64,000 nucleotides of DNA from Candidatus Yanofskybacteria bacterium (GTDB lineage Bacteria; Patescibacteriota; Minisyncoccia; 2-02-FULL-40-12; GWA2-44-9), in NCBI GenBank assembly GCA_003514055.1, contig DOSG01000002.1, positions 79,825 through 143,824 of the forward strand, given 5' to 3'. Made by a program: the position numbers and the translations under genes. Each line of letters begins with the position of its first letter. Positions within the stretch are counted from its first letter, which is position 1. The notes beneath the pieces were generated by a model that had not been told where the DNA came from, did no database searches, and saw only the letters and a program-made list of their open reading frames with translations. Below, piece by piece: positions 2,537 through 37,128 of this stretch.

Positions 2537-3565
2537 ATGACCGACAAAAATAAAAGTATCATATATGCTACCGTGGGGTTTATGTTTATGGCCGTATTCT
2601 TTGTTTTGGGGTACACGCATAATGATCAGGAGATAAAAGATTTTACTAAGACTAATATTGTTAAAGAAAAGATTACTGTCGAGCCCACGCCGAGTCCTGC
2701 GAGTAAAAATGGGGCCTCTATTATTTTTGTGGGCGATGTCATGACGTCACGAACAGTGGCTCAGAAAATGAAAAAGAATGGGTATGATTATCCGTTCTCA
2801 GCCATGGCGGGATATCTAAAAAGCGCTGACATGGTTTTCGCTAATCTAGAGACGCCCATAACGTCTGGGCCAAGCGTAAGTAGTGGAGATGTCGTTTTCC
2901 GTTCTGACCCAGAGGTTGCCGGTGCCTTGGCTCGCGCTAATATCAAAATAGTTTCTTTGGCCAACAATCATTCGATGAATTTTGGTGTTCAGGGCATAGC
3001 CGATACTTTCAAATATCTTATATCGGCTGGTGTCGATTTCGTGGGTGCCGGTAATAATGAAGTGGAAGCTTATGGGCCAAAATACATAAATATAAACGGG
3101 ATCAAGTTCGCGTTCTTGGCTTTTACTGATATCGACGTACTTCCTCCAGGAGCCGCTATAGAAGTGATTCAGCCAGGCGTAGCTATAATGGATTTAGCTA
3201 AGGCCAAGAAGGCAATTCAGGTAGCTAAAGGCATTGCCGATGTGATTGTTGTCTCGATGCACTCGGGTACAGAATATACCGACGTGCCCAATCAAAGACA
3301 AACAAGTTTCGCTCGAGGCGCTGTGGATGCGGGCGCTGATTTGGTTATTGGGCATCATCCGCATTGGACTCAAACGGTAGAGGAATATAAGGGCAAATAC
3401 ATTTTCTACAGTTTAGGCAATTTTGTATTTGATCAGATGTGGTCACAGAAAACCCGTGAAGGTGAAATTGTAAAAATATATTTTTCAAAGGATGGAGTCG
3501 AAAAATACGATTTGACTAGAATCGTTATTGACGATTATTCTAGGCCAAGGATAGTCCAGCCCTAA
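2537..3565 (+). CDS. CapA/PgsA-like metallophosphoesterase (poly-gamma-glutamate capsule synthesis family), membrane-anchored
   Basis: N-terminal TM segment; GDVM.., NNHSMNFG, GHHPHW motifs typical of the CapA family. Confidence 0.55.
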   Translation: MTDKNKSIIYATVGFMFMAVFFVLGYTHNDQEIKDFTKTNIVKEKITVEPTPSPASKNGASIIFVGDVMTSRTVAQKMKKNGYDYPFSAMAGYLKSADMVFANLETPITSGPSVSSGDVVFRSDPEVAGALARANIKIVSLANNHSMNFGVQGIADTFKYLISAGVDFVGAGNNEVEAYGPKYININGIKFAFLAFTDIDVLPPGAAIEVIQPGVAIMDLAKAKKAIQVAKGIADVIVVSMHSGTEYTDVPNQRQTSFARGAVDAGADLVIGHHPHWTQTVEEYKGKYIFYSLGNFVFDQMWSQKTREGEIVKIYFSKDGVEKYDLTRIVIDDYSRPRIVQP

Positions 3566-3675: not shown

Positions 3676-5517
3676 ATGCCAGACGATAATATTTCAAAAA
3701 TAAAAGAGCGGCTAGACGTAGTCGGAGTCCTTTCTGGCTATATCAAAGTTCAGAAGGCGGGTATGAATTTCAAGGCACGTTGCCCGTTTCATAATGAGAA
3801 GACGCCATCTTTCTATATATCGCCAGAGAGGCAGATTTGGCATTGTTTTGGTTGTCAAAAAGGCGGCGATATATTTGCTTTCGTAAAAGAGATCGAGGGC
3901 GTCGAATTTCCAGATGCTATGCGCATACTGGCTCAGAAAGCTGGCATACAATTACAGCACTACGAGCTAATCGATCAGAAAAAAGACGAGAAAGCCATTC
4001 TGTATGATATCGTCGAATTAGCAACTAAGTTTTTCGAGAAACAACTTAGGGCCTCTAGAACGGGCATGCAGGCACTAAAGTATTTGAAAGAAAGAGGCCT
4101 CGAAGAGGGCACCATAGATGAATTTAGATTGGGCTTTGCGGCTAACGATTGGGAGGCCTTGTCATCTTTTTTAAGAGAGAGGGGATATAAGGAGCAAGAT
4201 ATCGTGGCCGCGGGTATGGCCATCAAGAGAGAAAATAAGAGTGGCGCTTATGACCGATTTCGTTCTCGAATTATATTCCCCATATTTGATCTAAACGGGA
4301 GGGTGGTCGGCTTCACGGGCAGAGTGTTTCAAGCAGAAAGACCGTTAGAGACTAAGGGCGAAGAGCCAGCTAAATATATTAACACGCCCCAGACTTCCAT
4401 TTATGACAAAAGTATGGTATTGTACGGCTTAAGTAAGGCGAAACAGAGTATACGCCAATCAGACAAATGTCTGCTGGTCGAGGGCAATATGGATGCCCTC
4501 ATGTCGTACCAGGCCGGCGTTACTAATGTAGTCGCCACATCCGGCACAGCGCTGACACCAAATCATTTAAAAATCCTACAGCGCTATACAAGTAATTTGG
4601 ATTTCTCATTCGATACCGATCAGGCCGGAGCGATAGCAACAAGAAGGGGCATAGGCCTCGCCTTAGCCCAAAATTTCAGTGTAAAAGTAGTTTCAATAGA
4701 AGATCCTTTATGCAAGGATCCGGCTGACTTTGTCCAGAAGCATGGTTCCAAATGGGCCGAGTTAGTTTCTGCATCAAAGCCGGTCATACAGTTCTATTTC
4801 GACAATTTGAGATCGCAGATAAACCCGTCATCGGTTGACGGGAAGAAAGCCGTTATTGCGGCGCTGGCACCTTTTATAAGAAGAATTGTCAGCAAAGTTG
4901 AGAAGGACCATTGGATTAGTCACTTGGCATCCTTTTTAAAAACTAAGGAAGAGGCACTTGAGGCTGATGTCTTAGCGGCTAAAGATGATTTAGGTGTTTA
5001 TGAAGGGGGTTCGAATGTCTCGGCTGGGCCAGTCCCAACGGTGGCTGCCGTGGGGTGGGCACCTGATAATGAATTGGCTGTGGATATACTTAGCGAGGCG
5101 CTGTTATCCATCATCATAAAGAATCCATCGATTTTTAAAGATGAGCTGGTCAAGATCAATCTGGACTTAATTGATCCTCGCGTATCTGGTGTTGTGACGG
5201 TGCTATCTAAGCTAGATCTAGAGAACTTTAATTTCGCCGAGGTCGTTAAGGGTTTTGACGGTGCGGCGGCGATGAAGCTAGAGTTTGCCTTCCTGAGGTC
5301 ACAAGAACTCTGGAAAGATTTTCAAGACGAAGATCTAAGGATAGAATTCAAGTCTGTTTTGCAAAAAATAGTTCACCGTTCGATTGTCGCTCGTCTAGTC
5401 AATCTCGAATACGAGATGAAAGAAGCCGAGATGACGGGTGATAAAGATAAGATTAGTGAATTGATATCGAAGTTCACAAATCTAACCAAGGAATTGGTTG
5501 AGATAAATAACATATAA
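3676..5517 (+). CDS. dnaG: DNA primase
   Basis: Zn-ribbon [11 protein letters not shown]...CFGC; TOPRIM region ([10 protein letters not shown]); 613 aa; immediately upstream of rpoD. Confidence 0.9.
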
Positions 5518-5518
5518 A

Positions 5519-6712
5519 ATGGCCAAAAAAACAAAAAAGACGACTGCGAAGAAAGCGATCAAGCCCAAGAATAAAGTTAAAGCTCCAAAAACCAAGAAGA
5601 AGGTAGCTAAGAAGTCTAAAGCTCCTGGTAAGATAATTTTAAGCGAAAGCAGCGTTCTTGCTTTGATCGAAAAAGGACGCCACAGAGGCTTTGTAACTCA
5701 GGCCGAAGTCTTAAATTCTTTTCCCAATATTGAGAAGGATATTAAGGGCCTAGAGGCCTTGTATGACAAACTCGATGCGGCAAATGTTAATGTTATTGAA
5801 TCTGGCAGGGTTTTTCATGAAGAATCAGTCAAAGAGTACGATGCTAAGAAAAAAATCGAAACTGAGTTTGGCGATTCTTCGTCAGATTCGGTGCAGATGT
5901 ATTTGAAAGAGATCGGGCAATATCCACTTTTAACTAGCGAGGAAGAAATTGAATTGGCTAAAAGAATTGAGAAGGACGACGAAGCGGCTCGTCAGAAGCT
6001 GGCTCTTTCGAACTTAAGATTGGTGGTCTCGATCGCCAAGAAGTACGTGGGGCGCTCGGCTAATTTGACTCTGCTTGATTTGATTCAAGAGGGGAATATT
6101 GGGTTATTTAAGGCCGTAGAAAAGTTTGATTACAAAAAGGGATATAAATTCTCAACCTATGCTACTTGGTGGATTAGGCAAGCTATTACTCGTGCCTTAG
6201 CTGACCAAGGCAGAACTATCCGCATTCCGGTGCACATGGTTGAGACTATAAATAAATACCAACAGGTAGTACGACGCTTAGTGCAGGATCTTGGTCGTGA
6301 GCCTATGCCGGAAGAGACTGCTTCAGAGATGGGCATTGCCGTGGATAAGGTTAGGCACATCATGAAGATCTCACAGGAAACGATTTCTCTCGAAGCGCCG
6401 GTGGGCGATGATGATGATCAGGATTCAAGTCTAGAGAGTTTTATTCCAGACGAAGATACGATTTCGCCATCGATGTCCGCCGCTAGAAAAATATTAAAAT
6501 CATATATTAACGAAATCATCGCCGACTTAACTCCAAGAGAGCAGAAAATACTAGATATGAGATTTGGATTGACCGATGGCGTGACTCACACTCTCGAAGA
6601 GGTTGGTAAGGTGTTTGCCGTTACTCGCGAGCGTATTAGACAAATTGAAGCCAAGGCTTTGGATAAAATTCGACAACATCACAAGTTGGGCAAGTTAAAG
6701 GGCTACGAATAG
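5519..6712 (+). CDS. rpoD: RNA polymerase primary sigma factor (sigma-70 family) with lysine-rich N-terminal tail
   Basis: region 2.4 [13 protein letters not shown]; region 4 [23 protein letters not shown]; dnaG-rpoD synteny. Confidence 0.9.
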
Positions 6713-6725
6713 CCGAGACAACTCG

Positions 6726-6770
6726 TCTCAAATCAAATGGCGGCCTTTGGCCGCCATTTGATTTGAGACC
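6726..6770 (+). terminator. Long perfect hairpin after rpoD (tctcaaatcaaatggcggcc-tttg-ggccgccatttgatttgaga)
   Basis: 20-bp perfect inverted repeat; no T-run follows, so the terminator role is inferred. Confidence 0.4.
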
Positions 6771-6858: not shown

Positions 6859-7387
6859 GTGGAGACTATTCCTTCGAAATAGCGCTATAATGTTATTAAT
6901 GAAGGATAAAAGAACCTATGCCGATCGTCGCGAGGAATTGATAAAAGCGGTCGCCAAAAGGCGACGCAAAGTCAAAAGTCTAGCGATAGAATATAAGGGT
7001 GGCAAATGCCAAGTTTGTGGATATTGTAAGTATCAAGGAGCTCTTGATATGCACCACATATCTGATAAGCAATTTGGCATCGGAGATAAAGGATATACGA
7101 GATCTTGGGAAAAGATTAAACAAGAACTTGATAAATGTATCCTTGTCTGCGCAAATTGTCATCGTGAGATAGAAGGCGGCATAACGCAGCTTTCCGATCG
7201 AAAGACGGATTGAAACTTTTCGGGATAACGGTGAAGCCCTAGTCCGCCGACTGGTGGATGGGTAATACCGTGGGAACCTCGTAAATTTTACGAGGGCGCC
7301 GTAGAGACTAGATACCGAAACGCCTAAATCGTAAGGTAAGATAGGGCGAAGATATAGTCCACCCCGTGTCGTAAGACATGGATTACG
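6859..7387 (+). mobile_element. Group I self-splicing intron (approximate boundaries) with an ORF in its 5' part
   Basis: Conserved core elements in the expected order: R-like gtagagactaga (~7296-7307), S-like aagatatagtcc (~7341-7352). P8-like hairpin cgccta...tagggcg between them. P9-like GNRA hairpin ccgtgtc-gtaa-gacatgg, then G before the 3' exon. Confidence 0.6.
6890..7213 (+). CDS. HNH homing endonuclease (intron-encoded)
   Basis: CQVCGYC...DMHHISDK...N...VCANCH pattern (CxxC...HH...N...CxxCH); 107 aa; lies entirely inside the intron. Confidence 0.75.
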   Translation: MLLMKDKRTYADRREELIKAVAKRRRKVKSLAIEYKGGKCQVCGYCKYQGALDMHHISDKQFGIGDKGYTRSWEKIKQELDKCILVCANCHREIEGGITQLSDRKTD

Positions 7388-9011
7388 TGTAAGGAGAAGG
7401 TTCCAGGTTCGAGTCCTGGTCGCGGAGCAGAGGGTTCAAACCAGCGCCCGAAAGGGCGTTTTGGTTTGGATTAGAGCCACTTTTTGGCGGTTCTAAAGTT
7501 TGTTTTTGTAGTTTTGCCTGTTCTGCCCTTTCTTTTATCCTTAATATCGGTTTTTTATAGAATTTGCCCAATATCTCGCCGTTTAAAGTAAGGTTCGAGA
7601 ATATAAGCGACATGAACTCTCTTTTTGCCGGTATGTCGTCTTTTAGTGATTCGTATATTTCTTTTGATTTTCTGGCCAATTCCATAAAAGAACTACCGAG
7701 TAAGAGGAAATGAGTATTGTTTTGTTTTAATTTTGATTTTTCATCGATAACCCTTTGTTGATCCTGGTCCCACGTTTGGATATTACGGTTGTATTGGTCT
7801 TCAGATATCTTGCCGTCTAGCTTGTCTATATAGCAACGATCCTTGCGTTGCTGAAGAATCTGGAATTGTCGATCCAGATTCTCGGTTGCATTTTCAAAGT
7901 AATTAACTTCTTCCCGATGATTGCTTTTTAGTACTTCCTGGACCAGGGCAATTTCGTCCGGATCAAGCCCTTGGTGGAACCAGTCGAATATCTCCTTGGC
8001 CTGGGCCTCTATCCGGTCCTCACGTGCGAATTTTAGGCCCCTACAACCCTTATAGCCGTTACATCGGTAATAGGTTCGCCCTTTATGTATCTCACCACAT
8101 ACGGTGCCACCACAGGCCTTACAGTAAACCAACTGCTTAAAGAGGTGGAAGTGCTTCCTGTGTTTAGGCGTTGTTTTGGAATGCATGAGGGACTGCACCT
8201 GGTCAAATAACTCTTTCGATATCAATGCCGGGTGCTTGGCCGGATAGATAACACCTTTCCAAACCATCGAACCGTAGTAAAAGGGATCAGACAAAAGTTC
8301 TGCAATCCGGCTTTTAAGTATCTTTCGGCCGGACTCATTTCTTAAACCTTCTCGATATAACAGCTCAACAAGTGATTTTAGTGAATGCTGACCGGAAGCA
8401 TACAATTCAAACATACGACGAGCATACGGCGATTTATTCTCATCAACTATGTGGATCTTCCTGCCCTTTTCTCCGATGGTCTTATAGCCGATAGGGGGCC
8501 TAGTGGGAAGCCAGCCCTCTTTCAGTTTTTGTGCCTGGCCCTTTTTAACCTCCTCGGACAGGTTGTTTGAGTAAAACCTAGCAATAGCAATTTTCATATC
8601 CCATACCAGATTCTCGTGGGCCTTGGTATTCTTATTTGCTATGAAGTTCTCTTTTACGAAGTGTACTTTTCGGTTTTCATTCTCAAAAACCCAATCGCCC
8701 GCTATAATTGCTTCTTTTTGATTTCGAGTCATCCGATCGATTTTCTCGCATAAGATGTTGCCAGTATTATGGTCAACAGCATAATCAATCATCTGCTTAA
8801 ATATCTTTCGTGTCTGTTTTCCGCTTGCTGATTCTGGTACAGAGAACTCCTTAACGATCTTAAGGTTTTTGGAAGCAGCATAAGTCCTGAGCAACTCCGA
8901 TTGCGCGGCTAGGGAATACCCTTCTTCTGCCTGTTCTTTAGTGGATACCCGGCAATATAGAATTGCACAGTCGACTCTTATTCTTTGTATTTTTTGGTTT
9001 TCGGAAGCCAT
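7383..9011 (-). CDS. Large serine recombinase / integrase
   Basis: N-terminal resolvase catalytic domain (AILYCRVSTKEQ, YSLAAQ); recombinase domain; Zn-ribbon CKACGGTVCG...YYRCNGYKGC; coiled-coil C-terminus; 3' end overlaps the tRNA 3' exon on the opposite strand. Confidence 0.85.
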   Translation of the reverse strand: MASENQKIQRIRVDCAILYCRVSTKEQAEEGYSLAAQSELLRTYAASKNLKIVKEFSVPESASGKQTRKIFKQMIDYAVDHNTGNILCEKIDRMTRNQKEAIIAGDWVFENENRKVHFVKENFIANKNTKAHENLVWDMKIAIARFYSNNLSEEVKKGQAQKLKEGWLPTRPPIGYKTIGEKGRKIHIVDENKSPYARRMFELYASGQHSLKSLVELLYREGLRNESGRKILKSRIAELLSDPFYYGSMVWKGVIYPAKHPALISKELFDQVQSLMHSKTTPKHRKHFHLFKQLVYCKACGGTVCGEIHKGRTYYRCNGYKGCRGLKFAREDRIEAQAKEIFDWFHQGLDPDEIALVQEVLKSNHREEVNYFENATENLDRQFQILQQRKDRCYIDKLDGKISEDQYNRNIQTWDQDQQRVIDEKSKLKQNNTHFLLLGSSFMELARKSKEIYESLKDDIPAKREFMSLIFSNLTLNGEILGKFYKKPILRIKERAEQAKLQKQTLEPPKSGSNPNQNALSGAGLNPLLRDQDSNLEPSPYT

Positions 9012-9109
9012 TTCATTAAATTAGGGGTTGATTACATTAACGCTTAAGTTTGGAATCAATTCAAGTCTGTCATAATGGCTAATTTAGGTGGGATAAGCCT
9101 GGAGCAACT

Positions 9110-9245
9110 TTCCTAATATCCTTTATTTAAGCCATTTTTATAATGGTTTGATTCTCGACTTTTCCCAGCGGGTGATTTTCCGAAAAGTCTGATTTATGGC
9201 TAAAAAGTTCTGACCGGCTTTCCAAATATCCTTTATTTAAGCCAT
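9110..9245. repeat. Two ~32-bp direct repeats (tttccYaatatcctttatttaagccattDtt) about 100 bp apart, just upstream of the recombinase gene
   Basis: repeats read at ~9110-9142 and ~9213-9245. Confidence 0.5.
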
Positions 9246-9350
9246 TATTCTAGTAATTAATTTTAGACTTTTTATCTAAGACATTTTTATAACTTTTTCT
9301 TACTATTCTTATTTGTGTAAGCATAACCTTACGGGGCTATGCGATTATGT

Positions 9351-10802: not shown

Positions 10803-11076
10803 AACCGTAGCGATTTTTAGTCAATTTTTCAAGTAGAGCAAGACCTTTTAATCATTGAGTGTTTGTGGTAAATTTAGCGTAACAATTCAGCCTAAACCAA
10901 TCGGGGCAACCTGATTAGCATGGCATCAAATACCGACGAAGATACTGAACCCATCGTTCAGGCTCCTTCGTCGGTCCATACCCGAAAGGGTGTGGGAGAG
11001 TGAAAGCTCTCGGCCTAGCGGTGGGTTTAGTGTTATACAAAACCCTGAGTCCCCATTAGCCGAGGCAAAATATACC

Positions 11077-11547
11077 ATGGGGACGAATCTCAAACGAATC
11101 ACGGTGAGCCTATTGCTAGTTGTTGGTGTGGTTGTACTTATCTCGGCATTGTCCTCTGGTGAACCAGGGAAGGATGTGGAAACAGTTGCCGCGTTTGATG
11201 TCCCAATGCTTGTTGGCAAGGACCTCTCCGGACTTGTAGCCGAATTGGGCATACCAGATAATAACAGCGAGCCGAATATGCTCCAAATAGAAAATGGGAC
11301 AAAAACATGGGAAAAAAGCTGGGAACGGGGCGACTATTTTCTTATGGCAACTTACGATGTAAAAACTAGAAACGTTATAGACTTGTTTATAGGTGCTGAA
11401 ACCGACGCCGGGTTTGTTCAGTTCCGGGATACAAAAAATATCTTGAAGGTAGGTGGACTATCCTCGAGTGCTACTGGTTACTCGGTCGAATTTGTAAAAG
11501 CAAGAAATACTCCGGGTTATACAGGTGCTGTTATTAAGGAGAGGTAA
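11077..11547 (+). CDS. Hypothetical membrane-anchored/secreted protein
   Basis: internal ATG followed by a hydrophobic segment (ITVSLLLVVGVVVLISAL). Confidence 0.45.
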   Translation: MGTNLKRITVSLLLVVGVVVLISALSSGEPGKDVETVAAFDVPMLVGKDLSGLVAELGIPDNNSEPNMLQIENGTKTWEKSWERGDYFLMATYDVKTRNVIDLFIGAETDAGFVQFRDTKNILKVGGLSSSATGYSVEFVKARNTPGYTGAVIKER

Positions 11548-11655: not shown

Positions 11656-12795
11656 ATGACGAGAAAAATTAATAAAATTGAGCTTCCAAAACCAATAGAC
11701 AAGAAAGAGATTACCTTGGATTCTTTAGTGTTAGACGACGACAATCCTCGCTTTGGGAGTACCCTGAACGGCAAAAGTCAGGAAGAAATCATAGAGAAAC
11801 TTGCCAAAGAGAAAAATCTATATGAGTTAATAGAATCATTCAGACAGAATGGTTACTACGAAGCAGAACCCCTGCTAGTTATCGGAGATAAAAAAAGTCC
11901 TGGTAAGTATATCGTCATTGAGGGCAATCGACGCGTAGCAGCTTTAAAAATACTTTTTGACTCAAACCTTTTAAAAAAATTCGGCTTTTCTAGTCCAAAC
12001 AATTTAAAACTTGAGGATTCTCTTGTGGAAAATCTCACCAAACACATTCCTGTGCAGGTTTATGGTAGTCGAAAAGATCTATGGAGCTACTTGGGCTTCA
12101 GGCATATTAAGGGGCCAATGCCGTGGGATCCTTATAGTAAGGCGCTTTATATTGTTAGTTTACATAAAGCTGGTACGTCAATAGACGAGATTGTTGAGCG
12201 CATAGGAGATCAAAATGCTCTAGTCGTGAAGATGTTTAATGGCATAAAGGTACTACAACAGGCAGAGCGCAAAAACCTTATTGAACCGGAAAATATAGCA
12301 AAGTTCGCCTTTTCCCATTTGTATACCATTCTTGGATACACAAATACGCAAAAGTTTCTTGGTCTTAAAATAAAAAGTGGGACTCTCTTAAAAGACAACC
12401 CCATACATGAAAAATATATTAAAAATCTGAAGTTACTCATTGAATTTATTTATGGTGATAAGGAGGGTAAATTCAAGTCGGTTATTCGGTCACAGAATCC
12501 TGATATCCGCCAATTAGACGCAGTCTTAAGCGACCCGAAATTAATAGCTGACCTAAAGGTAAACGTGAATCAGGTCGGATCTTTGAGTAATGTCTTTGCT
12601 GCTACCGGAGAGGCAGAGCAGATAGTCCCAGACTTAATAGCTGATGCTTTGGCAAAACTTAAAAAAGCAGCTGCCAACTTTCATACATATAAAAAAGTTG
12701 ACTCTTCCACAAGATCAATGATCGATGAAATAGCTGAGCTTGCCATAGATTTAACAAACAGACTCGATGCCAAGAAAAAAGGTAAAAAAAGCTAG
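11656..12795 (+). CDS. ParB-like / DUF262-like NTPase-nuclease domain protein
   Basis: DDDNPR box followed by YIVIEGNRRVAALK, resembling ParB Box I-II and the DUF262 DGQQR motif; 379 aa; 3' end overlaps the next gene by 29 nt. Confidence 0.5.
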   Translation: MTRKINKIELPKPIDKKEITLDSLVLDDDNPRFGSTLNGKSQEEIIEKLAKEKNLYELIESFRQNGYYEAEPLLVIGDKKSPGKYIVIEGNRRVAALKILFDSNLLKKFGFSSPNNLKLEDSLVENLTKHIPVQVYGSRKDLWSYLGFRHIKGPMPWDPYSKALYIVSLHKAGTSIDEIVERIGDQNALVVKMFNGIKVLQQAERKNLIEPENIAKFAFSHLYTILGYTNTQKFLGLKIKSGTLLKDNPIHEKYIKNLKLLIEFIYGDKEGKFKSVIRSQNPDIRQLDAVLSDPKLIADLKVNVNQVGSLSNVFAATGEAEQIVPDLIADALAKLKKAAANFHTYKKVDSSTRSMIDEIAELAIDLTNRLDAKKKGKKS

Positions 12796-13747
12796 ATCTT
12801 CTGCTCCTACTTTACGCCAGCTGATATCATTACCAAACCAAGCAGACGAGTTATCAGAGTTAGCAGATTGGGTAGAAGTTTCAGCATGGATTCAATCTGA
12901 CTATCAAGTTAGTCGGGAAGAGGTACTGTCTGTTTTTTCGTTTGCATCGGATAGTAATGATGCAGAAGAAAAAGTTTCAAAGTTGTGGGACGAATTAAAA
13001 ACCCGTGCTGTAATTCTCCAAGATCATTATCCCTTTGCGTTATCTCCCGGGGAAGAGATTTTTCAATTTAAAAATAACGACCGCTACAAGGCTTATCTTT
13101 TTTGTTTACTTCTTTCGTTTGTTGGACTTACAAAAATAAACTCCAGAACATTTCCCGCTGCAAGTATTTTTGAAGAGTTATGCTCTTCTGTCGCTCAGAA
13201 ATATATTTCAAGTGAGTCAGTTCCTGCGAAAAGCTTACATTTTGGTTGGCCGCGTAATAGCTGGCCCAGAAGACAAAGATCACTATTAAAGGCCCTGCCA
13301 GAGCTTATAAGGACCCTCGGAGATGGAGAAAATCTAATTGATGGTGTCAGAAGTGGACGAAGTGCTCATACAGGAGATGCGGGTCTAGATATTGCTGCTT
13401 GGCGTCCATTCGTAGATGAGAGAAGGGGCATGTTGGTATTTTTAGGGCAGTGTGCAACTTCTAGGGACCATAATAGTTACATGAAGAAATTAGGAGACCT
13501 CGATTCATTCCTACTAGAGTGTGTTAACTTTAATTTTCCAAACACCCTAGGGTTGTTTATACCCCATATCCTGAGCGACAACGATCAATCCCACAAGGAG
13601 TACTGGGAGAGAATAAAGAGAAGGAAGAATATCCCATTTGATAGAATTAGAATTGCTCTTTATGGCGAGTCTTGGTCAAACTCTAAACTAGATACTTTTT
13701 TAAGTAGTCAACGTAAAAAATTGAAACAGGAGCACTCTCTTACTTAA
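12767..13747 (+). CDS. Hypothetical protein, putative nuclease partner (DUF1524/His-Me-finger-like, tentative)
   Basis: C-terminal IPHILSDNDQSHKEYW...N...SNSK resembles the EHIxPQ...W...N...N pattern of DUF1524; translationally coupled to the ParB-like gene. Confidence 0.35.
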   Translation: MPRKKVKKARSSAPTLRQLISLPNQADELSELADWVEVSAWIQSDYQVSREEVLSVFSFASDSNDAEEKVSKLWDELKTRAVILQDHYPFALSPGEEIFQFKNNDRYKAYLFCLLLSFVGLTKINSRTFPAASIFEELCSSVAQKYISSESVPAKSLHFGWPRNSWPRRQRSLLKALPELIRTLGDGENLIDGVRSGRSAHTGDAGLDIAAWRPFVDERRGMLVFLGQCATSRDHNSYMKKLGDLDSFLLECVNFNFPNTLGLFIPHILSDNDQSHKEYWERIKRRKNIPFDRIRIALYGESWSNSKLDTFLSSQRKKLKQEHSLT

Positions 13748-14885
13748 GAACCTTGATCGTAAAGTCGTACTCTCCAGAGTCATCGTATTTTTTGCCGAAC
13801 ATTCTAGCCTGCCGCACTTTTTTAAAAGGAGAGTAGCTTTCTTTTATTAAACTAAGTTTTTGATTGCTCCTTTTTATGCTTTTCTGGATAATTTTTCGCA
13901 AAGGGTAATTATCTTTTGTGGATTGACCTATTCTACATACTATAATCCCATCTTTACTCATTATTTTAATAAGTGACTTCCATGTGTCAGAAAGAAAATC
14001 TATATATTTTTCTTGAGATGCAATTCTGTCATCTTTGGTTATCTTGCCTCGTGATGGAAATGGCTCGAATCCTAAGAACCATAGCCTTAGCCACTGGTCT
14101 TCCTCGTAAGATGTTATTTTTAAATATGGCGGAGACATTACTACTAGCGCGGCTTTCTTACTGGTGATCTTCTTTATGTTTCTATCAATATCTCTAACAT
14201 CTCCTAAGATACAATGCCCACGAGATTTAAATTTATGCTGTTTAGAGTTTGATAGTCTGAAATTTGTCCTGTCTCGTAAAACAGAGAAGGTGTCTATATG
14301 AGGAGCCTTCATTTTATTTTTGTGCCAGAATCTAACTGAGTAGCCTGGCTTCGGGCAATACGTATGGGGCAGGTTATTGCTTAAGTAAACCTTTTTTGTT
14401 TTTTGTGTTTCCCCGTGCAAGTAGCTAAGACATAATGTTTTAATAAAAAGACCCTCCTTTGTTTGCTCTTTTTTAAGTCGGTTCCTTAACCATAAAATCT
14501 GAAGTAGGGTTTTGCTATAGTATGCATGGCGGAAAAAAAGCGGCAACCTGGAAGCTTCTTCTCTGATAGAATTCTTATCGGCCGACTCAAACTCCTTCTC
14601 TAGTTTTTCGATGTATTTTAAGCAGGTAGCCAGTTTAATGGGCCTTGTTTTTGCTTGAGTAATCGCAAACGCCACAGGGTTTATATCATTGGCTATCGCC
14701 GCTCTTCCCAGTATTCTTGCTTCCAACAAGGTGGTTCCTCTACCTGAAAAGGGGTCTATAACTAAATCTCCTGGCTTTGAATGTTTTAAGATGGCGTCTC
14801 TAGCAAATTCTGGAGGGAACATGGCAAAATAAGGGCATAGTGCATGCATTGCATCATTGTAAGTTATTGAGGATATAATTTTCAT
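13740..14885 (-). CDS. DNA methyltransferase (N6-adenine or N4-cytosine, amino-MTase)
   Basis: AdoMet motif I DLVIDPFSGRGTT near the N-terminus and catalytic motif IV SPPY (VVMSPPYL) about 210 aa downstream. Confidence 0.8.
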   Translation of the reverse strand: MKIISSITYNDAMHALCPYFAMFPPEFARDAILKHSKPGDLVIDPFSGRGTTLLEARILGRAAIANDINPVAFAITQAKTRPIKLATCLKYIEKLEKEFESADKNSIREEASRLPLFFRHAYYSKTLLQILWLRNRLKKEQTKEGLFIKTLCLSYLHGETQKTKKVYLSNNLPHTYCPKPGYSVRFWHKNKMKAPHIDTFSVLRDRTNFRLSNSKQHKFKSRGHCILGDVRDIDRNIKKITSKKAALVVMSPPYLKITSYEEDQWLRLWFLGFEPFPSRGKITKDDRIASQEKYIDFLSDTWKSLIKIMSKDGIIVCRIGQSTKDNYPLRKIIQKSIKRSNQKLSLIKESYSPFKKVRQARMFGKKYDDSGEYDFTIKVLK

Positions 14886-16927: not shown

Positions 16928-17099
16928 GATAATAATTCTACTATTAAATTTATTAAATGGTAGGGACGGCTAGATTAAATATTCAGATATTCTCTCAAGT
17001 CGGGGATATGCAAAAAATTCTCTTTTTTGATCACAGTTCTAACGTCATTCACAATGCGGAGCATTTTTCAGAGAGTGGCTTAAAACACCACTTTTTGAT

Positions 17100-17221
17100 A
17101 TTGCAAATATTAGGATTTTGTGCTATAATATAGACAATGTTGCACCATCTAATCTGGATGCGTGCAGGCAGACCGTAAACCAACGATCCAGCACAGCTGG
17201 ACGGATGGAAGGAGAGCGGCT
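17100..17221 (+). promoter_or_regulatory. Promoter TTGCAAAT...TGCTATAAT plus a conserved 52-nt leader (hairpin ccagc-aca-gctgg; RBS ggaaggagag) ahead of paralogue 1
   Basis: nearly identical to 23146-23264. Confidence 0.55.
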
Positions 17222-17650
17222 ATGGCAACTATGGTGTTGCTCGACAACAATGGCGAGAAAGTACGGACTCTCGGGTCGATCATCAATCCGAACCCGGATC
17301 TGGTCATCCCGCAGGGGTGGATGCTCAGTTGGGAAAATCAGTTCATGGAGGTCACTGCGACCGATCGTCTGAAAAATGCCGTGCTTACGCACGGGAAGGC
17401 CCGCGTCCTGGTCAATGTCGTGATGCAGACGCTCGTGGTCAGAATCGAGAGCCCGAATGTGAGGGATCTCGTGGAGGCAATCGACCTCATGGTTCAGTAC
17501 GTCGGGGGCGAGGTCGCTACGTTCAGCCCCTCCGCCGCCAACAATTCGTTCGTCGGCGGCATCAAGAACGACCTCGTCTTTCTTCGAAACATGGCGGTAC
17601 GGGCCATTCGCTCGCTACGGCAGCGAACTGGCTTCAAGATCGCGCGCTAA
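17222..17650 (+). CDS. GC-rich hypothetical protein, paralogue 1 (~142 aa)
   Basis: start MATMVLLDNNGEK after the RBS; 180 nt identical to the 23218-23398 copy, then diverged; own big-stem terminator downstream. Confidence 0.6.
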   Translation: MATMVLLDNNGEKVRTLGSIINPNPDLVIPQGWMLSWENQFMEVTATDRLKNAVLTHGKARVLVNVVMQTLVVRIESPNVRDLVEAIDLMVQYVGGEVATFSPSAANNSFVGGIKNDLVFLRNMAVRAIRSLRQRTGFKIAR

Positions 17651-17855
17651 GCGCTCACACCTCGCATCGAGACAGGGGATCCCAATCCTCGTCTGGTGCG
17701 GGGTCCTTTGTTTTTATACGTATCCAAGACTAATTAAATCTCCCCGAATTCTTACTCAATCCAGCGTTCTGAATGCGTTCCGTAGGCAGAGCAAAGCTTG
17801 ACAATAGCACTAGATGGTGCTATTGTTATTTTAACCTTAAAACTAGGAGAGTGTC

Positions 17856-23062: not shown

Positions 23063-23264
23063 TCTCAGTTAGGTTATAGAATTGATGCCCAAGAGGAGAG
23101 GGGCGCGTCTTTCAAAAAGTGCCTTAAATGGGCACTTTTTGGTATTGCAAACGTTACAGTTTCGTGCTATAATATAAATAATGTTGTGGCGTCTAACCTG
23201 GGCGTCGCGAACAGACCGTAAACCAACGATCCAGCACAGCTGGACGGATGGAAGGAGAGCGGCT

Positions 23265-23693
23265 ATGGCAACTATGGTGTTGCTCGACAACAATGGCGAG
23301 AAAGTACGGACTCTCGGGTCGATCATCAATCCGAACCCGGATCTGGTCATCCCGCAGGGGTGGATGCTCAGTTGGGAAAATCAGTTCATGGAGGTCCTCG
23401 CAAAGGACCACCTGAACAACGCCGTACTAACGCATGGGAAGGCTCTCGTTCTGGTCACCGCTATGATGAGTACGGTTGTGGTCCGGATTGAGAGCCCGAA
23501 CGTGAAGGACCTGGTCGAGGCGATCGACCTCGTGACCCGGTACCTTGGCGGCGAGGTTGCCACCTTCAGCCCCAACGCCGCCAACAATTCGTTCATTGGC
23601 GGTATCAAGAATGACCTCATCTTCCTTTGGGGGAAGACGACTCAGGCCATTCGCTCGCTACGGCAGCGGATTGGTTTCAAGATCGCACGCTAA
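23265..23693 (+). CDS. GC-rich hypothetical protein, paralogue 2 (~142 aa)
   Basis: same promoter, leader and first ~45 codons as 17222-17650. Confidence 0.6.
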   Translation: MATMVLLDNNGEKVRTLGSIINPNPDLVIPQGWMLSWENQFMEVLAKDHLNNAVLTHGKALVLVTAMMSTVVVRIESPNVKDLVEAIDLVTRYLGGEVATFSPNAANNSFIGGIKNDLIFLWGKTTQAIRSLRQRIGFKIAR

Positions 23694-34820: not shown

Positions 34821-35207
34821 ATGTATAAAAAAATATTAATATTAGGCGTGTTTCTTGCTGCGGGGGTATTAATTCTCGTCTTTACAGCTAAAGACAATAC
34901 AAATAAGAGCTCTACGGTAAGCCCGACTGCTAGTCCATCCATCACTCCAAAATCTCAAGATACATCTTCTGGGCATACTCTTTTAGATGTTGCTAGTCAT
35001 AATGGCAGACCAAGCTGCTGGAGCGTGGTTAATGGAAAGATTTATGACCTTACTTCGTGGATTGATAAACATCCCGGTGGCTCTGATCGCATTCTTAAGA
35101 TATGTGGGACTGATGGCTCGGCCAATTTTAACAATCAGCATGGAGGTAAGCAGAAACCGGCTGATCAATTAGTTAATTTCTATGTTGGAGATTTGTCGGT
35201 GCGATAG
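34821..35207 (+). CDS. Cytochrome b5-like heme-binding domain protein, secreted/anchored
   Basis: HNGRPSCWSVVNGKIYDLTSWIDKHPGG (cyt b5 HPGG motif); signal peptide. Confidence 0.75.
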   Translation: MYKKILILGVFLAAGVLILVFTAKDNTNKSSTVSPTASPSITPKSQDTSSGHTLLDVASHNGRPSCWSVVNGKIYDLTSWIDKHPGGSDRILKICGTDGSANFNNQHGGKQKPADQLVNFYVGDLSVR

Positions 35208-35362
35208 ACCATGGAGTGCCCGATATACGTGTTGATCTTATGCAACACTAATTAAGGCTCGATTTTTCCTCTTTTCAACCCGCAAAATAGGGGAGGAACG
35301 TTCATTTCTCCTTGCTAAAACAGTAAGATTGATGGCCTAGACAGGTCTAAGCTGTTGCGATT

Positions 35363-35392
35363 GACGAAACCGCCTGTTTATGCTATAATTAA
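35363..35392 (+). promoter_or_regulatory. Promoter TTGACG-N17-TGcTATAAT ahead of a GC-rich gene
   Basis: ttgacgaaaccgcctgtttatgctataatt. Confidence 0.5.
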
Positions 35393-35474
35393 TACAACAG
35401 TGATGGTAGGGACCTTCACAACAGAATACGTTAGATTTGGTGCTTTTTTTCTTGTATCCATAAGGAGCTTGAGG

Positions 35475-36734
35475 ATGAAGAAGATCGACAGGACTGCCGA
35501 ATTCCCTCAGTTGAGGGACGGCGAAGTGTATGCGGACTGGACGGGAGCGGCGCTTCCACCGGTATCGCTCATCAGCAAGTTCGCGACGTTTCTGACGTCG
35601 CATCTGCTGGGTAACCCACACTCATCGCACCGGGCATCGCAGACCGCCTCCGACATGGTGACGGCGACGCGAGCGAGAATTCTGTCGTATCTCAACGCTT
35701 CCAGCGATGAATACGATGTGGTCTTTACCCCGAACGCGACCGGTGCGATCCGTATCCTCGAACACTTCGTGTTCCGGGGCGGTGAGCTTCTGCTCACCGC
35801 GGACAACCATAACTCGGTCAACGGCTTGCGGGAAACCGCAAAACGTGACGGAGGGGTGGTGCGCTACGCGCCCATCAATGGCAATCTCGGGATCGACGTA
35901 GATGGGTTGGTCCGACTGCTCGACTACCCGCGTACGGAAGGTGGGAACAAGCTCTTCGCCTACCCGGCGAAGAGCAATTACTCGGGGGTGTGTCATCCGC
36001 TCGAGCTAGTCGGGATGGCGCAGGAACGCGGGTGGTACGTCCTTCTGGACGCCGCCGCGTACAACGCGAACTGCCGTCTCGATCTGAGCGCGGTCAAGCC
36101 GGACTTCGTTCCGGTGTCGTTCTACAAGATGTTCGGGTTCCCAACGGGTGTCGGTTGCCTGATCATCAAGAAGACGGCCTACGCAGCGCTGGCCAAGAAG
36201 TGGTTCGCCGGCGGCTCGATCCGACTGGTGTCGGTCGCCACCGACTACTTTACCCATGATCGTGGGGCGTCGAAGTACGAGGACGGAACCATCAACTTCC
36301 AGATGATCCCGGCGATCATGGAAGGGCTCGAGTTCCTCGAGGAGTTTGGGGATCGGAATCGGCACGCCATCGCGTTGGCTACCCAGCTCCGTGACGAGCT
36401 CAAGGGCTTGGCAGTGGGAGACGCCTTGTTCGTCATTCACAGCCCGCGTGGTACGGACACCGTGGCTTGCGCCGTTCGCAAAGACGGCGAATACTTGTCA
36501 GTGAGAAGGTTTGAAGAGTTCGCCTCTGAGCGTGGAGTTCACGTCCGGGCGGGCGACTTCTGCAACCCCGGGGCTAACGAGCAGGTGTATGGCTTCGTGG
36601 TCGACCCAAACGAGCCGCAATTCGATGCGGCTCCCAACGGGAGCATCAGAATTTCATTTGGCTACGCCAACGTGGCGAGCGATGTTTCACGGATTCTCGA
36701 GGTGGCAAGGGAGTACTTGGACCACATCCAGTAG
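35475..36734 (+). CDS. GC-rich class-V aminotransferase-fold PLP enzyme (MOCOS/cysteine-desulfurase-like)
   Basis: SFYKMFGFPTGVGCL resembles the PLP-lysine region of the molybdenum-cofactor sulfurase/NifS family; RBS taaggag. Confidence 0.55.
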   Translation: MKKIDRTAEFPQLRDGEVYADWTGAALPPVSLISKFATFLTSHLLGNPHSSHRASQTASDMVTATRARILSYLNASSDEYDVVFTPNATGAIRILEHFVFRGGELLLTADNHNSVNGLRETAKRDGGVVRYAPINGNLGIDVDGLVRLLDYPRTEGGNKLFAYPAKSNYSGVCHPLELVGMAQERGWYVLLDAAAYNANCRLDLSAVKPDFVPVSFYKMFGFPTGVGCLIIKKTAYAALAKKWFAGGSIRLVSVATDYFTHDRGASKYEDGTINFQMIPAIMEGLEFLEEFGDRNRHAIALATQLRDELKGLAVGDALFVIHSPRGTDTVACAVRKDGEYLSVRRFEEFASERGVHVRAGDFCNPGANEQVYGFVVDPNEPQFDAAPNGSIRISFGYANVASDVSRILEVAREYLDHIQ

Positions 36735-36746
36735 GAGAGGTGACAC

Positions 36747-36938
36747 ATGAGCCAGGATCAGTCGAAGGTTGACTCGCGTATCAAGGTCGGCTCGATCGTG
36801 AGTCGCCGTGGGCAGGAATACAGGGTGACAGAGTTCACCCACGGCTGCTGCGGCGGCGACGAACAGGTTCGGGTCAGGGATGGCAACGGCTTTTCGGCCG
36901 GGCCGTTCTACACCGACAACGTCAAGTTCGTTCGATAG
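36747..36938 (+). CDS. GC-rich small protein (63 aa) with an HGCCGG motif
   Basis: RBS gagagg; terminator cccccgggggg...ccccggggttttt follows. Confidence 0.35.
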   Translation: MSQDQSKVDSRIKVGSIVSRRGQEYRVTEFTHGCCGGDEQVRVRDGNGFSAGPFYTDNVKFVR

Positions 36939-37128
36939 TCGTCTACGCGACGGCTATCAGCCCCCGGGGGGTTCTACCCCCGGGGTTTTTGTTTACTAAA
37001 TAAATTGCCCAACGAGCGATCATATAAAAATATCTGGATTAATATCCGCGTATTTAGGAAGGAATAAAAAGATGATCCATGAGTGGATCATCTTTTTATT
37101 CCTGGGGAACTATAAACGAGTCTTTGTC

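Follow-up and report, generated by a model that had tools for sequence, protein, structure and literature searches.

PD-λ-5, from Escherichia coli ECOR7, is a two-gene system for which anti-phage activity has been shown experimentally, with broad protection (Vassallo et al. 2022; PMC9519451). Its authors list the components as 'ParB/HEPN, methyltransferase' and describe a compacted prophage system that unites restriction-modification (RM) with abortive infection (Abi); a Δmrr host was required for it (PMC9519451). In addition, the supplementary P2-hotspot table of Rousset 2022 holds an E. coli cassette written as 'DNA_methylase + hypothetical + ParBc', which lies outside the systems tested there, as well as a 'DUF262 + DNA_methylase + HEPN' cassette, that is, a ParB-superfamily protein, a methyltransferase (MTase) and an effector. 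The window considered here, a stretch of 64,000 nt from Candidatus Yanofskybacteria, a bacterium of the candidate phyla radiation (CPR; contig DOSG01000002.1, positions 79,825 to 143,824), carries three overlapping genes of related make-up. According to the list of open reading frames (ORFs), these are gene A (11656..12795, + strand, 379 aa), gene B (12767..13747, + strand, 326 aa) and gene M (13740..14885, − strand, 381 aa). Together they make up a variant of PD-λ-5 with three genes, where a separate effector of restriction-endonuclease (REase) fold stands in for the fused HEPN domain. It is fairly probable that the three genes act as one RM-like anti-phage cassette and belong with PD-λ-5 to a group built from three modules: a ParB-type sensor or switch, an effector and a methyltransferase.

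The genes are tightly packed. The reading frames of A and B differ and share 29 nt, the ATG of B lying inside the last codons of A, and B is probably translationally coupled to A; B and M are convergent and overlap by 8 nt. The ORFs, their overlaps, the convergent MTase and the motifs quoted in an initial annotation of this DNA are all present where that annotation placed them. UW46_C0005G0049 and UW46_C0005G0050, two entries annotated as 'hypothetical', are 100% identical to the A and B proteins, respectively.

That the three genes form a unit is indicated by their conservation. The arrangement was followed in loci (designated by L numbers) collected through a scan of IMG/VR with a degenerate pattern taken from the B alignment, which gave 50 loci, and through three exact-protein look-ups, which gave four genomic loci, with the window added. 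An A-family gene stands immediately before B in every locus with upstream DNA (52 of 52, window included), and a DNA MTase stands next to B in every locus with downstream DNA (again 52 of 52), usually in convergent orientation and with overlapping stop codons. Most junctions within the triad range from −8 to +4 nt. The loci span 20 clusters of B at ≥60% identity, and they come from Gammaproteobacteria, Actinobacteria, CPR bacteria and cultured P2-like phages, with Pantoea, Pseudomonas and Curtobacterium among the genera. Thus, the suggestion that the three genes are a conserved unit of defence type is borne out, the same order being seen in 52 of 52 loci on each side. The obligatory presence of an overlapping A gene also argues against B being a stand-alone endonuclease that needs Mg2+ only.

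The MTase differs between triads. Among 19 representatives of B clusters, Pfam assigns 11 MTases to the C5 family, six to D12 and two to N6_N4, which are three unrelated families. In the tree of B, the class of MTase largely tracks the clades, as is expected for a cognate R-M pair. The position of the MTase can vary too. In L063 (5086-8152), and only there among L060-L067, the order is M-A-B, with a D12 MTase upstream and co-directional; therefore, the place of the MTase is flexible even within the close clade of the window. Neighbours of this locus include a Type IIG-like N6_Mtase/Eco57I gene, a serine recombinase and a tyrosine integrase. A and M are inherited together in the closest relative of the window, L060, where their identity to the window proteins amounts to 63% and 69%, respectively, as opposed to 25% for the adjacent recombinase.

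Triads are also found in phage Wφ (gp98-gp96-Mth), in Pseudomonas phage D14A and in the CPR or metagenomic loci L060-L067. The Wφ form occurs at ≥99% identity in 104 of 5,426 complete E. coli genomes, strain W among them, where PGAP labels the genes as 'ParB N-terminal domain-containing protein | hypothetical protein | DNA cytosine methyltransferase'. The initial annotation was right that the arrangement is not a textbook one, but it is not rare, as Wφ gp98-gp96-Mth, the table of Rousset 2022 and the PD-λ-5 sibling indicate.

Several loci have the triad in the P2 gpA-portal defence hotspot, where it takes the position of old/tin. Others adjoin Mrr or other RM genes, and some are on chromosomes outside prophages. 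For instance, an Mrr-type Type IV enzyme (Mrr_N + Mrr_cat) follows the triad MTase directly in L060 (10351-11178) and L061 (6795-7622). Given that PD-λ-5 could be cloned only in a Δmrr host, the Mrr enzymes of these two loci must tolerate the mark made by the neighbouring MTase. As a separate observation, the triad of an Ectothiorhodospiraceae prophage (L001), which has a C5 MTase, is preceded just upstream of A by a gene for the very-short-patch repair endonuclease Vsr (4102-4710). Vsr is the classic companion of Dcm-type methylation.

Comparison with the described systems shows both kinship and distance. With PD-λ-5, the cassette shares a homologous ParB-type N-terminal domain, an obligatory adjacent DNA MTase and carriage on prophages or mobile elements; moreover, the D12 MTases of the sibling triads L019 and L062 match the PD-Lambda-5_B model, itself a D12 MTase, with E from 1e-84 to 1e-97. 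By contrast, protein A of PD-λ-5 measures 432-491 aa in full-length homologs and ends in a fused 'HEPN' domain, whereas A in the window has 379 aa and an unrelated helical C-terminus. In addition, the D12 MTase of PD-λ-5 is co-directional and follows A (loci P0103 and P0100), whereas a convergent N6_N4 enzyme is found here, and PD-λ-5 lacks the separate winged-helix/PD-(D/E)xK protein B. The Wφ genes and the Rousset cassettes consist of the three families seen here, arranged and oriented alike, and their A protein belongs to phrog_3694, as does that of the window. Nevertheless, they have a C5 cytosine MTase and reside in P2-like prophages, whereas the copy in the window has an N6_N4 MTase and lies in a serine-recombinase islet of a CPR bacterium. 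Window A and the Wφ protein share approximately 30% identity over three quarters of the length.

Protein A is a ParB/Srx-fold protein with a ParB/KorB-type N-terminal domain and a helix-turn-helix (HTH) region, and it is not GmrS-like. Residues 15-150 (11698..12105, + strand) form the ParB/Srx-fold nucleotide-binding domain, with a box I-like motif D27..N30-P-R32 and a box II motif E89-G-N-R-R93; the signatures quoted in the initial annotation, DDDNPR and IEGNRRVAALK, correspond to residues 27-32 and 88-98. There follow an HTH-like DNA-binding region (residues 159-205; 12130..12270, + strand) and an all-helical C-terminal domain with two long helices at its end (residues 206-379; 12271..12792, + strand). 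The last of these takes the place of the HEPN part of PD-λ-5 protein A and possibly serves in dimerisation or in binding B. A structure search with its 170 residues gave no informative match, and none to HEPN. The predicted model of A (pLDDT, the predicted local distance difference test, 91.4; alignment of 76 sequences) agrees best with the classical ParB-CTPase clade, with match scores of 9.2 for KorB, 8.7 for pNOB8 ParB-N, 8.4 for PadC and 6.5 for Spo0J, as compared with 4.3 for SspE, 4.1 for BrxU and 3.5 for DndI among DUF262 proteins. The alignment with pNOB8 ParB-N covers 185 residues and reaches into the HTH. In PHROGs, A falls in family 3694, which is listed there as of unknown function.

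The relation of A to PD-λ-5 is confined to its N-terminal part. In PADLOC, A matches PD-Lambda-5_A with E 1.8e-26, yet the match covers only the first ~240 of 466 profile positions (it stops at 241-268). Similarly, hhalign aligns residues 17-172 of A with a full-length PD-Lambda-5_A protein (99.5%) and detects no similarity past residue 172. Within the family, D27, N30, R32, E89-G-N-R-R93, H150 and W157 are invariant or nearly so in 119 unique homologs; the nucleotide pocket is therefore under selection, and the ParB/Srx signature proposed at the outset is confirmed at the level of fold. A shares with the CTP (cytidine triphosphate)-dependent clamps ParB, KorB and PadC, which are its best structural matches, the arginines of boxes I and II followed by an HTH. 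It differs from them in having no ParA, no partition context, G-N-R-R in place of G-E-R-R and another C-terminal domain.

Protein B is more elusive. Neither its single sequence nor a profile of 21 sequences matches anything in Pfam, NCBIfam, PADLOC or PDB sequences, and B was resolved by structure prediction only. The model (pLDDT 88.9; pTM, the predicted template-modelling score, 0.88; alignment of 21 sequences) confidently predicts a winged helix joined to a PD-(D/E)xK restriction-endonuclease fold. Its best structural matches are NgoMIV, MspJI, AF1548 and FokI, and the nearest structures are sequence-specific or modification-specific DNases. Foldseek recovers the same kind of fold, but weakly: MspJI is found with a probability of 0.99 at E 4e-3, and there is no match at E ≤ 1e-3. 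The winged-helix domain (residues 29-101; 12851..13069, + strand) is a candidate DNA-recognition or specificity element. The PD-(D/E)xK core (residues 131-300; 13157..13666, + strand) contains a putative active site made of E/Q136, D204, D208, Q228 and K241, plus D292/R293. Residues D204, D208, W212, Q228, K241, P266 and R293 are invariant in 64 unique B sequences, and in the model the invariant residues are located at the start of strand 209-214, at the end of strand 222-229 and on helix 235-251.

The putative active-site motif of B in the window reads D208…Q228-C-A, with the invariant K241 on the next helix, and looks like a D…Q…K variant with a displaced lysine. Variants of the D…Q…K type are active in Mrr/MspJI-type enzymes. 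In MspJI itself, the motif is D334…Q355-x-K357, and the 20-residue spacing between D and Q in B resembles it. The earlier description of B as nuclease-like is thus upheld by the predicted fold. In contrast, the DUF1524 His-Me finger that was read into its C-terminal segment has no counterpart in Pfam or in the model: the segment in question, PHILSDNDQSHKEYW (residues 266-280), is a variable loop, where position 267 is taken by F, H, Q or Y and 37 of the 64 sequences lack H276. An exhaustive profile search puts the B family at 3,426 clusters at 50% identity, 1,504 of them with E ≤ 1e-30, and the named members encountered are all labelled 'hypothetical'. The best match of window B is phrog_14650 and that of Wφ gp96 is phrog_3984, both of them PHROGs of 'unknown function'. 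Two other relations of B were considered and rejected. That B is the detached C-terminal 'HEPN' half of PD-Lambda-5_A is not supported, as hhalign finds no similarity between B and a full-length protein of that type; nor is it supported that the 715-aa PADLOC model PDC-M38A is a fusion of A and B, as no member of the B family matches it and it offers no Rosetta-stone evidence.

Protein M matches N6_N4_Mtase (PF01555) in Pfam with E 1.4e-19, in agreement with the amino-MTase first proposed, and MTase_II in PADLOC with E 9.6e-25; the D12 model remains under its cutoff (E 4.3e-4). Motif I, DPFSGRGTT, occupies residues 44-52 (nt 14730-14756) and motif IV, SPPY, residues 251-254 (nt 14124-14135), so that M has both of the motifs expected from the S-adenosylmethionine (SAM)-dependent MTase of a type II R-M system. 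Among PDB sequences, M matches β-class N4-C and N6-A MTases, and the alignment runs in permuted order, as motif I precedes motif IV in M, which is the reverse of the order in these β-class relatives. From its sequence, M is predicted to be a circularly permuted SAM-dependent N6/N4 DNA methyltransferase.

Taken together, these observations suggest how an RM-like cassette of this kind might work. M would methylate the resident genome and mark it as self, and this mark would protect it. A would bind DNA and behave as a switch or clamp gated by a nucleoside triphosphate (NTP), by analogy with ParB and KorB. Through direct contact, A might then recruit or license B, whose variable winged helix would read DNA and add specificity, and whose PD-(D/E)xK core would cut unmodified incoming DNA, the expected outcome being protection against phages. 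The RM-like logic is favoured because a cognate MTase is obligate, because unrelated MTases are swapped while B co-diverges with them, and because A and M are co-inherited; it is also favoured by the placement of triads in defence hotspots and beside Mrr or other RM genes. In effect, the cassette resembles classical Type II R-M systems, in which the MTase adjoins a PD-(D/E)xK protein and MTase families swap while the partner co-diverges. It differs from them in its obligatory third partner, a ParB-type NTP-binding protein, and in the non-canonical D…Q-x-A motif of B with a distal lysine.

Some points weigh against this RM-like reading. Box II of A reads G-N-R-R and not G-E-R-R. In ParB, the glutamate of G-E-R-R contributes to CTP hydrolysis, and given its G-N-R-R, A may bind NTP without hydrolysing it. 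B lacks a canonical (D/E)xK, the position +2 after Q228 being A or G, although catalysis appears plausible on the model with K241 as the proposed substitute lysine. The hypermodified cytosines of T-even phages defeat many classical REases. PD-λ-5 protects strongly against T-even phages (PMC9519451), and sensing in the group of PD-λ-5-like systems may not consist of simple cleavage of unmethylated sites. Finally, the literature searches brought up no paper in which the three-gene form is named or tested.

An abortive or addictive mode of action is the alternative that fares best, even if it is unlikely. In such a system, A would sense foreign DNA or the loss of methylation and release a toxic nuclease, B, on the nucleic acids of the cell itself, while M would act mainly as the antidote that silences A and B, in the manner of an RM-like toxin-antitoxin system. 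The infected cell would then be killed, in place of a selective cutting of phage DNA. The activity of PD-λ-5 on T-even phages, whose DNA is resistant to most REases, is in keeping with this, as are its description as 'RM+Abi' and its HEPN effector, typically an RNase. The tight convergent overlap of B and M would likewise suit the co-regulation of a toxin and its antidote. However, B carries a winged helix of DNA type and a restriction-enzyme fold whose nearest structures are sequence- or modification-specific DNases.

Somewhat less likely still is that B is a catalytically dead DNA binder of REase fold, with A as the active component, or with phage replication blocked without cleavage, as in BREX. 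The missing lysine of the canonical ExK would be explained in this way. There are precedents for it, as inactive REase folds act as pure DNA sensors in NsnA of Menshen (PMC12065111), and some ParB/Srx proteins nick DNA or hydrolyse NTPs. Nevertheless, D204, D208, Q228 and K241 remain invariant across 64 diverged sequences, which is unusual for a dead site.

It is very improbable that the locus has no defensive role, with A as a KorB/ParB-like regulator or partition protein of the mobile element, B as an accessory DNA binder and M as a methylase that serves the element in an epigenetic or anti-restriction role. The initial annotation had considered the outcome that A might prove to be a partition ParB and B to lack a nuclease fold. 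Instead, A reaches 27.9 bits on the ParB partition model TIGR00180, the cutoff of which is 58.45 bits, no ParA or centromere-type partner is found next to A in any listed locus, and B has a PD-(D/E)xK fold with a conserved site of nuclease type. Moreover, the cassette replaces old/tin in the P2 defence hotspot, and it is found on chromosomes outside prophages, beside RM genes. The least credible explanation is the one originally put forward, a split GmrSD-type Type IV enzyme (DUF262 NTPase plus DUF1524 His-Me nuclease) paired with a methyltransferase: although EGNRR does resemble the DGQQR/DGQHR of DUF262 and DndB at the level of the motif, and although 'ParB-like NTPase plus nuclease' is functionally the logic of GmrSD, Pfam GmrSD_N gives A 15 bits, far under its cutoff of 33.2 (E 0.027), the structure of A sides with KorB, ParB and PadC and not with BrxU or SspE, B has neither a DUF1524 match nor a His-Me fold and its candidate histidines are unconserved, and an obligate cognate MTase, found in 52 of 52 loci, is incompatible with a modification-dependent enzyme aimed at the same mark, so that membership of that family is refuted. 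What the cassette has in common with GmrSD, BrxU and SspE is the general logic of coupling a ParB-superfamily NTP-binding domain to a nuclease in defence, whereas those systems belong to the DUF262 clade, use a His-Me/HNH nuclease, consist of a single polypeptide, target DNA in a modification-dependent manner and work without a cognate MTase.

A further point of comparison is Menshen (NsnABC), where a ParB-family DNA sensor is paired with a separate nuclease effector and the effectors are polymorphic (PMC12065111). Menshen was rejected as the family of the cassette, given its ParB-DUF262 protein, its ABC ATPase and its lack of an MTase, and it is an analogue only: its sensor is of the ParB-DUF262 type, the ABC ATPase NsnB is needed, and its inPIN-type effectors are mostly RNases.

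For the RM-like cassette, a wider and more tentative proposal may be made, namely that it represents an unrecognised and widespread class of NTP-dependent RM, in which unmodified DNA is detected by a switch or clamp of ParB-CTPase fold, in place of a helicase or AAA+ motor, and the nuclease that this switch licenses is a separate protein of winged-helix/PD-(D/E)xK type. PD-λ-5, with its HEPN effector, and the 'DUF262 + DNA_methylase + HEPN' cassette of the P2 hotspot may then be further versions of the same design, with interchangeable effector and methylase. Should the cassette restrict DNA as proposed, the ParB-CTPase fold would take its place beside helicases and AAA+ motors among the NTP modules by which restriction is driven. 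The B family, with its approximately 3,400 clusters at 50% identity, is newly recognised here as one of winged-helix/PD-(D/E)xK proteins; it can now be assigned a fold, a putative active site and, as obligatory partners, A and an MTase. PD-λ-5 can accordingly be regarded as one of the members of a modular group. The cassette would also enlarge the repertoire of defences known from CPR bacteria.

The copy in the window lies on a small islet of low GC content, next to a large serine recombinase. Housekeeping genes (P-type ATPase, PGA_cap, dnaG and rpoD) end at 6712 and are followed by the recombinase and small HTH/Rep-like genes, then by the cassette and after it by a Ham1 ITPase. The GC content reaches a trough of 0.38-0.39 over the cassette (12-15 kb), as compared with 0.42-0.46 in the housekeeping flank. 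The recombinase gene (7383..9011, − strand; Pfam Resolvase + Recombinase + Zn_ribbon_recom) is outside the system itself and is the probable mobility gene of the islet. Large serine recombinases also adjoin the triads of the closest relatives, L060/61 and L063, but the recombinases of the window and L060 are only 25% identical. The island boundaries showed neither a tRNA nor flanking direct repeats from which attachment (att) sites could be defined, and a promoter and terminator scan of 10.8-15.3 kb returned fewer sites than shuffled controls. Immediately upstream of the recombinase gene, there are two 69-nt direct repeats (9074-9142 and 9184-9252) with 72% identity, which may be regulatory or related to recombination.

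Upstream of the cassette, at 10889..11011 (+ strand), lies the only Rfam match of the window, a full-length LOOT small RNA (RF03000) that scores 76.4 bits against a gathering score of 46.4 and is 645 nt upstream of A. Copies of LOOT accompany other triads, at 6631-6750 (−) in L060, 3075-3194 (−) in L061, 1455-1566 (−) in L064, 5051-5167 (+) in L065 and 8493-8580 (+) in L063. Each of the five independent loci that make up the close clade (A ≥59% identical) has a LOOT copy at a distance of 0.25-3.5 kb from its triad, with varying position and strand, and none was found in 14 more distant triad loci. LOOT could be cargo of the element or a target for its integration; no functional literature on it was found. 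Between LOOT and A there is, in addition, a small ORF (10990-11547, + strand) that has an N-terminal transmembrane helix, no Pfam match and a probable true start at ATG 11077. L065 has a homologue of this ORF at the corresponding place (5338-5829; 31% identity, E 7e-15), and the ORF may be an accessory gene of the close-clade cassette.

Other features of the window lie farther from the cassette. Direct repeats of approximately 400 nt (17058-17468 and 23102-23511; 76-89% identity) take in a TTGCAA…TATAAT stretch that resembles a promoter, together with the 5′ portion of paralogous ORFs of 162 and 170 aa, which have no Pfam match. Promoter-like and terminator-like pieces are also repeated at 17701-17792/19381-19472, at 17796/18128/19807 and at 16105-16212/20140-20258, and the region that bears all these repeats has a raised GC content of 0.49-0.52. 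Finally, the GC content at 35001-37000 rises to 0.51-0.60, against approximately 0.42 elsewhere; as there is no Rfam match in that interval, it is not rRNA.

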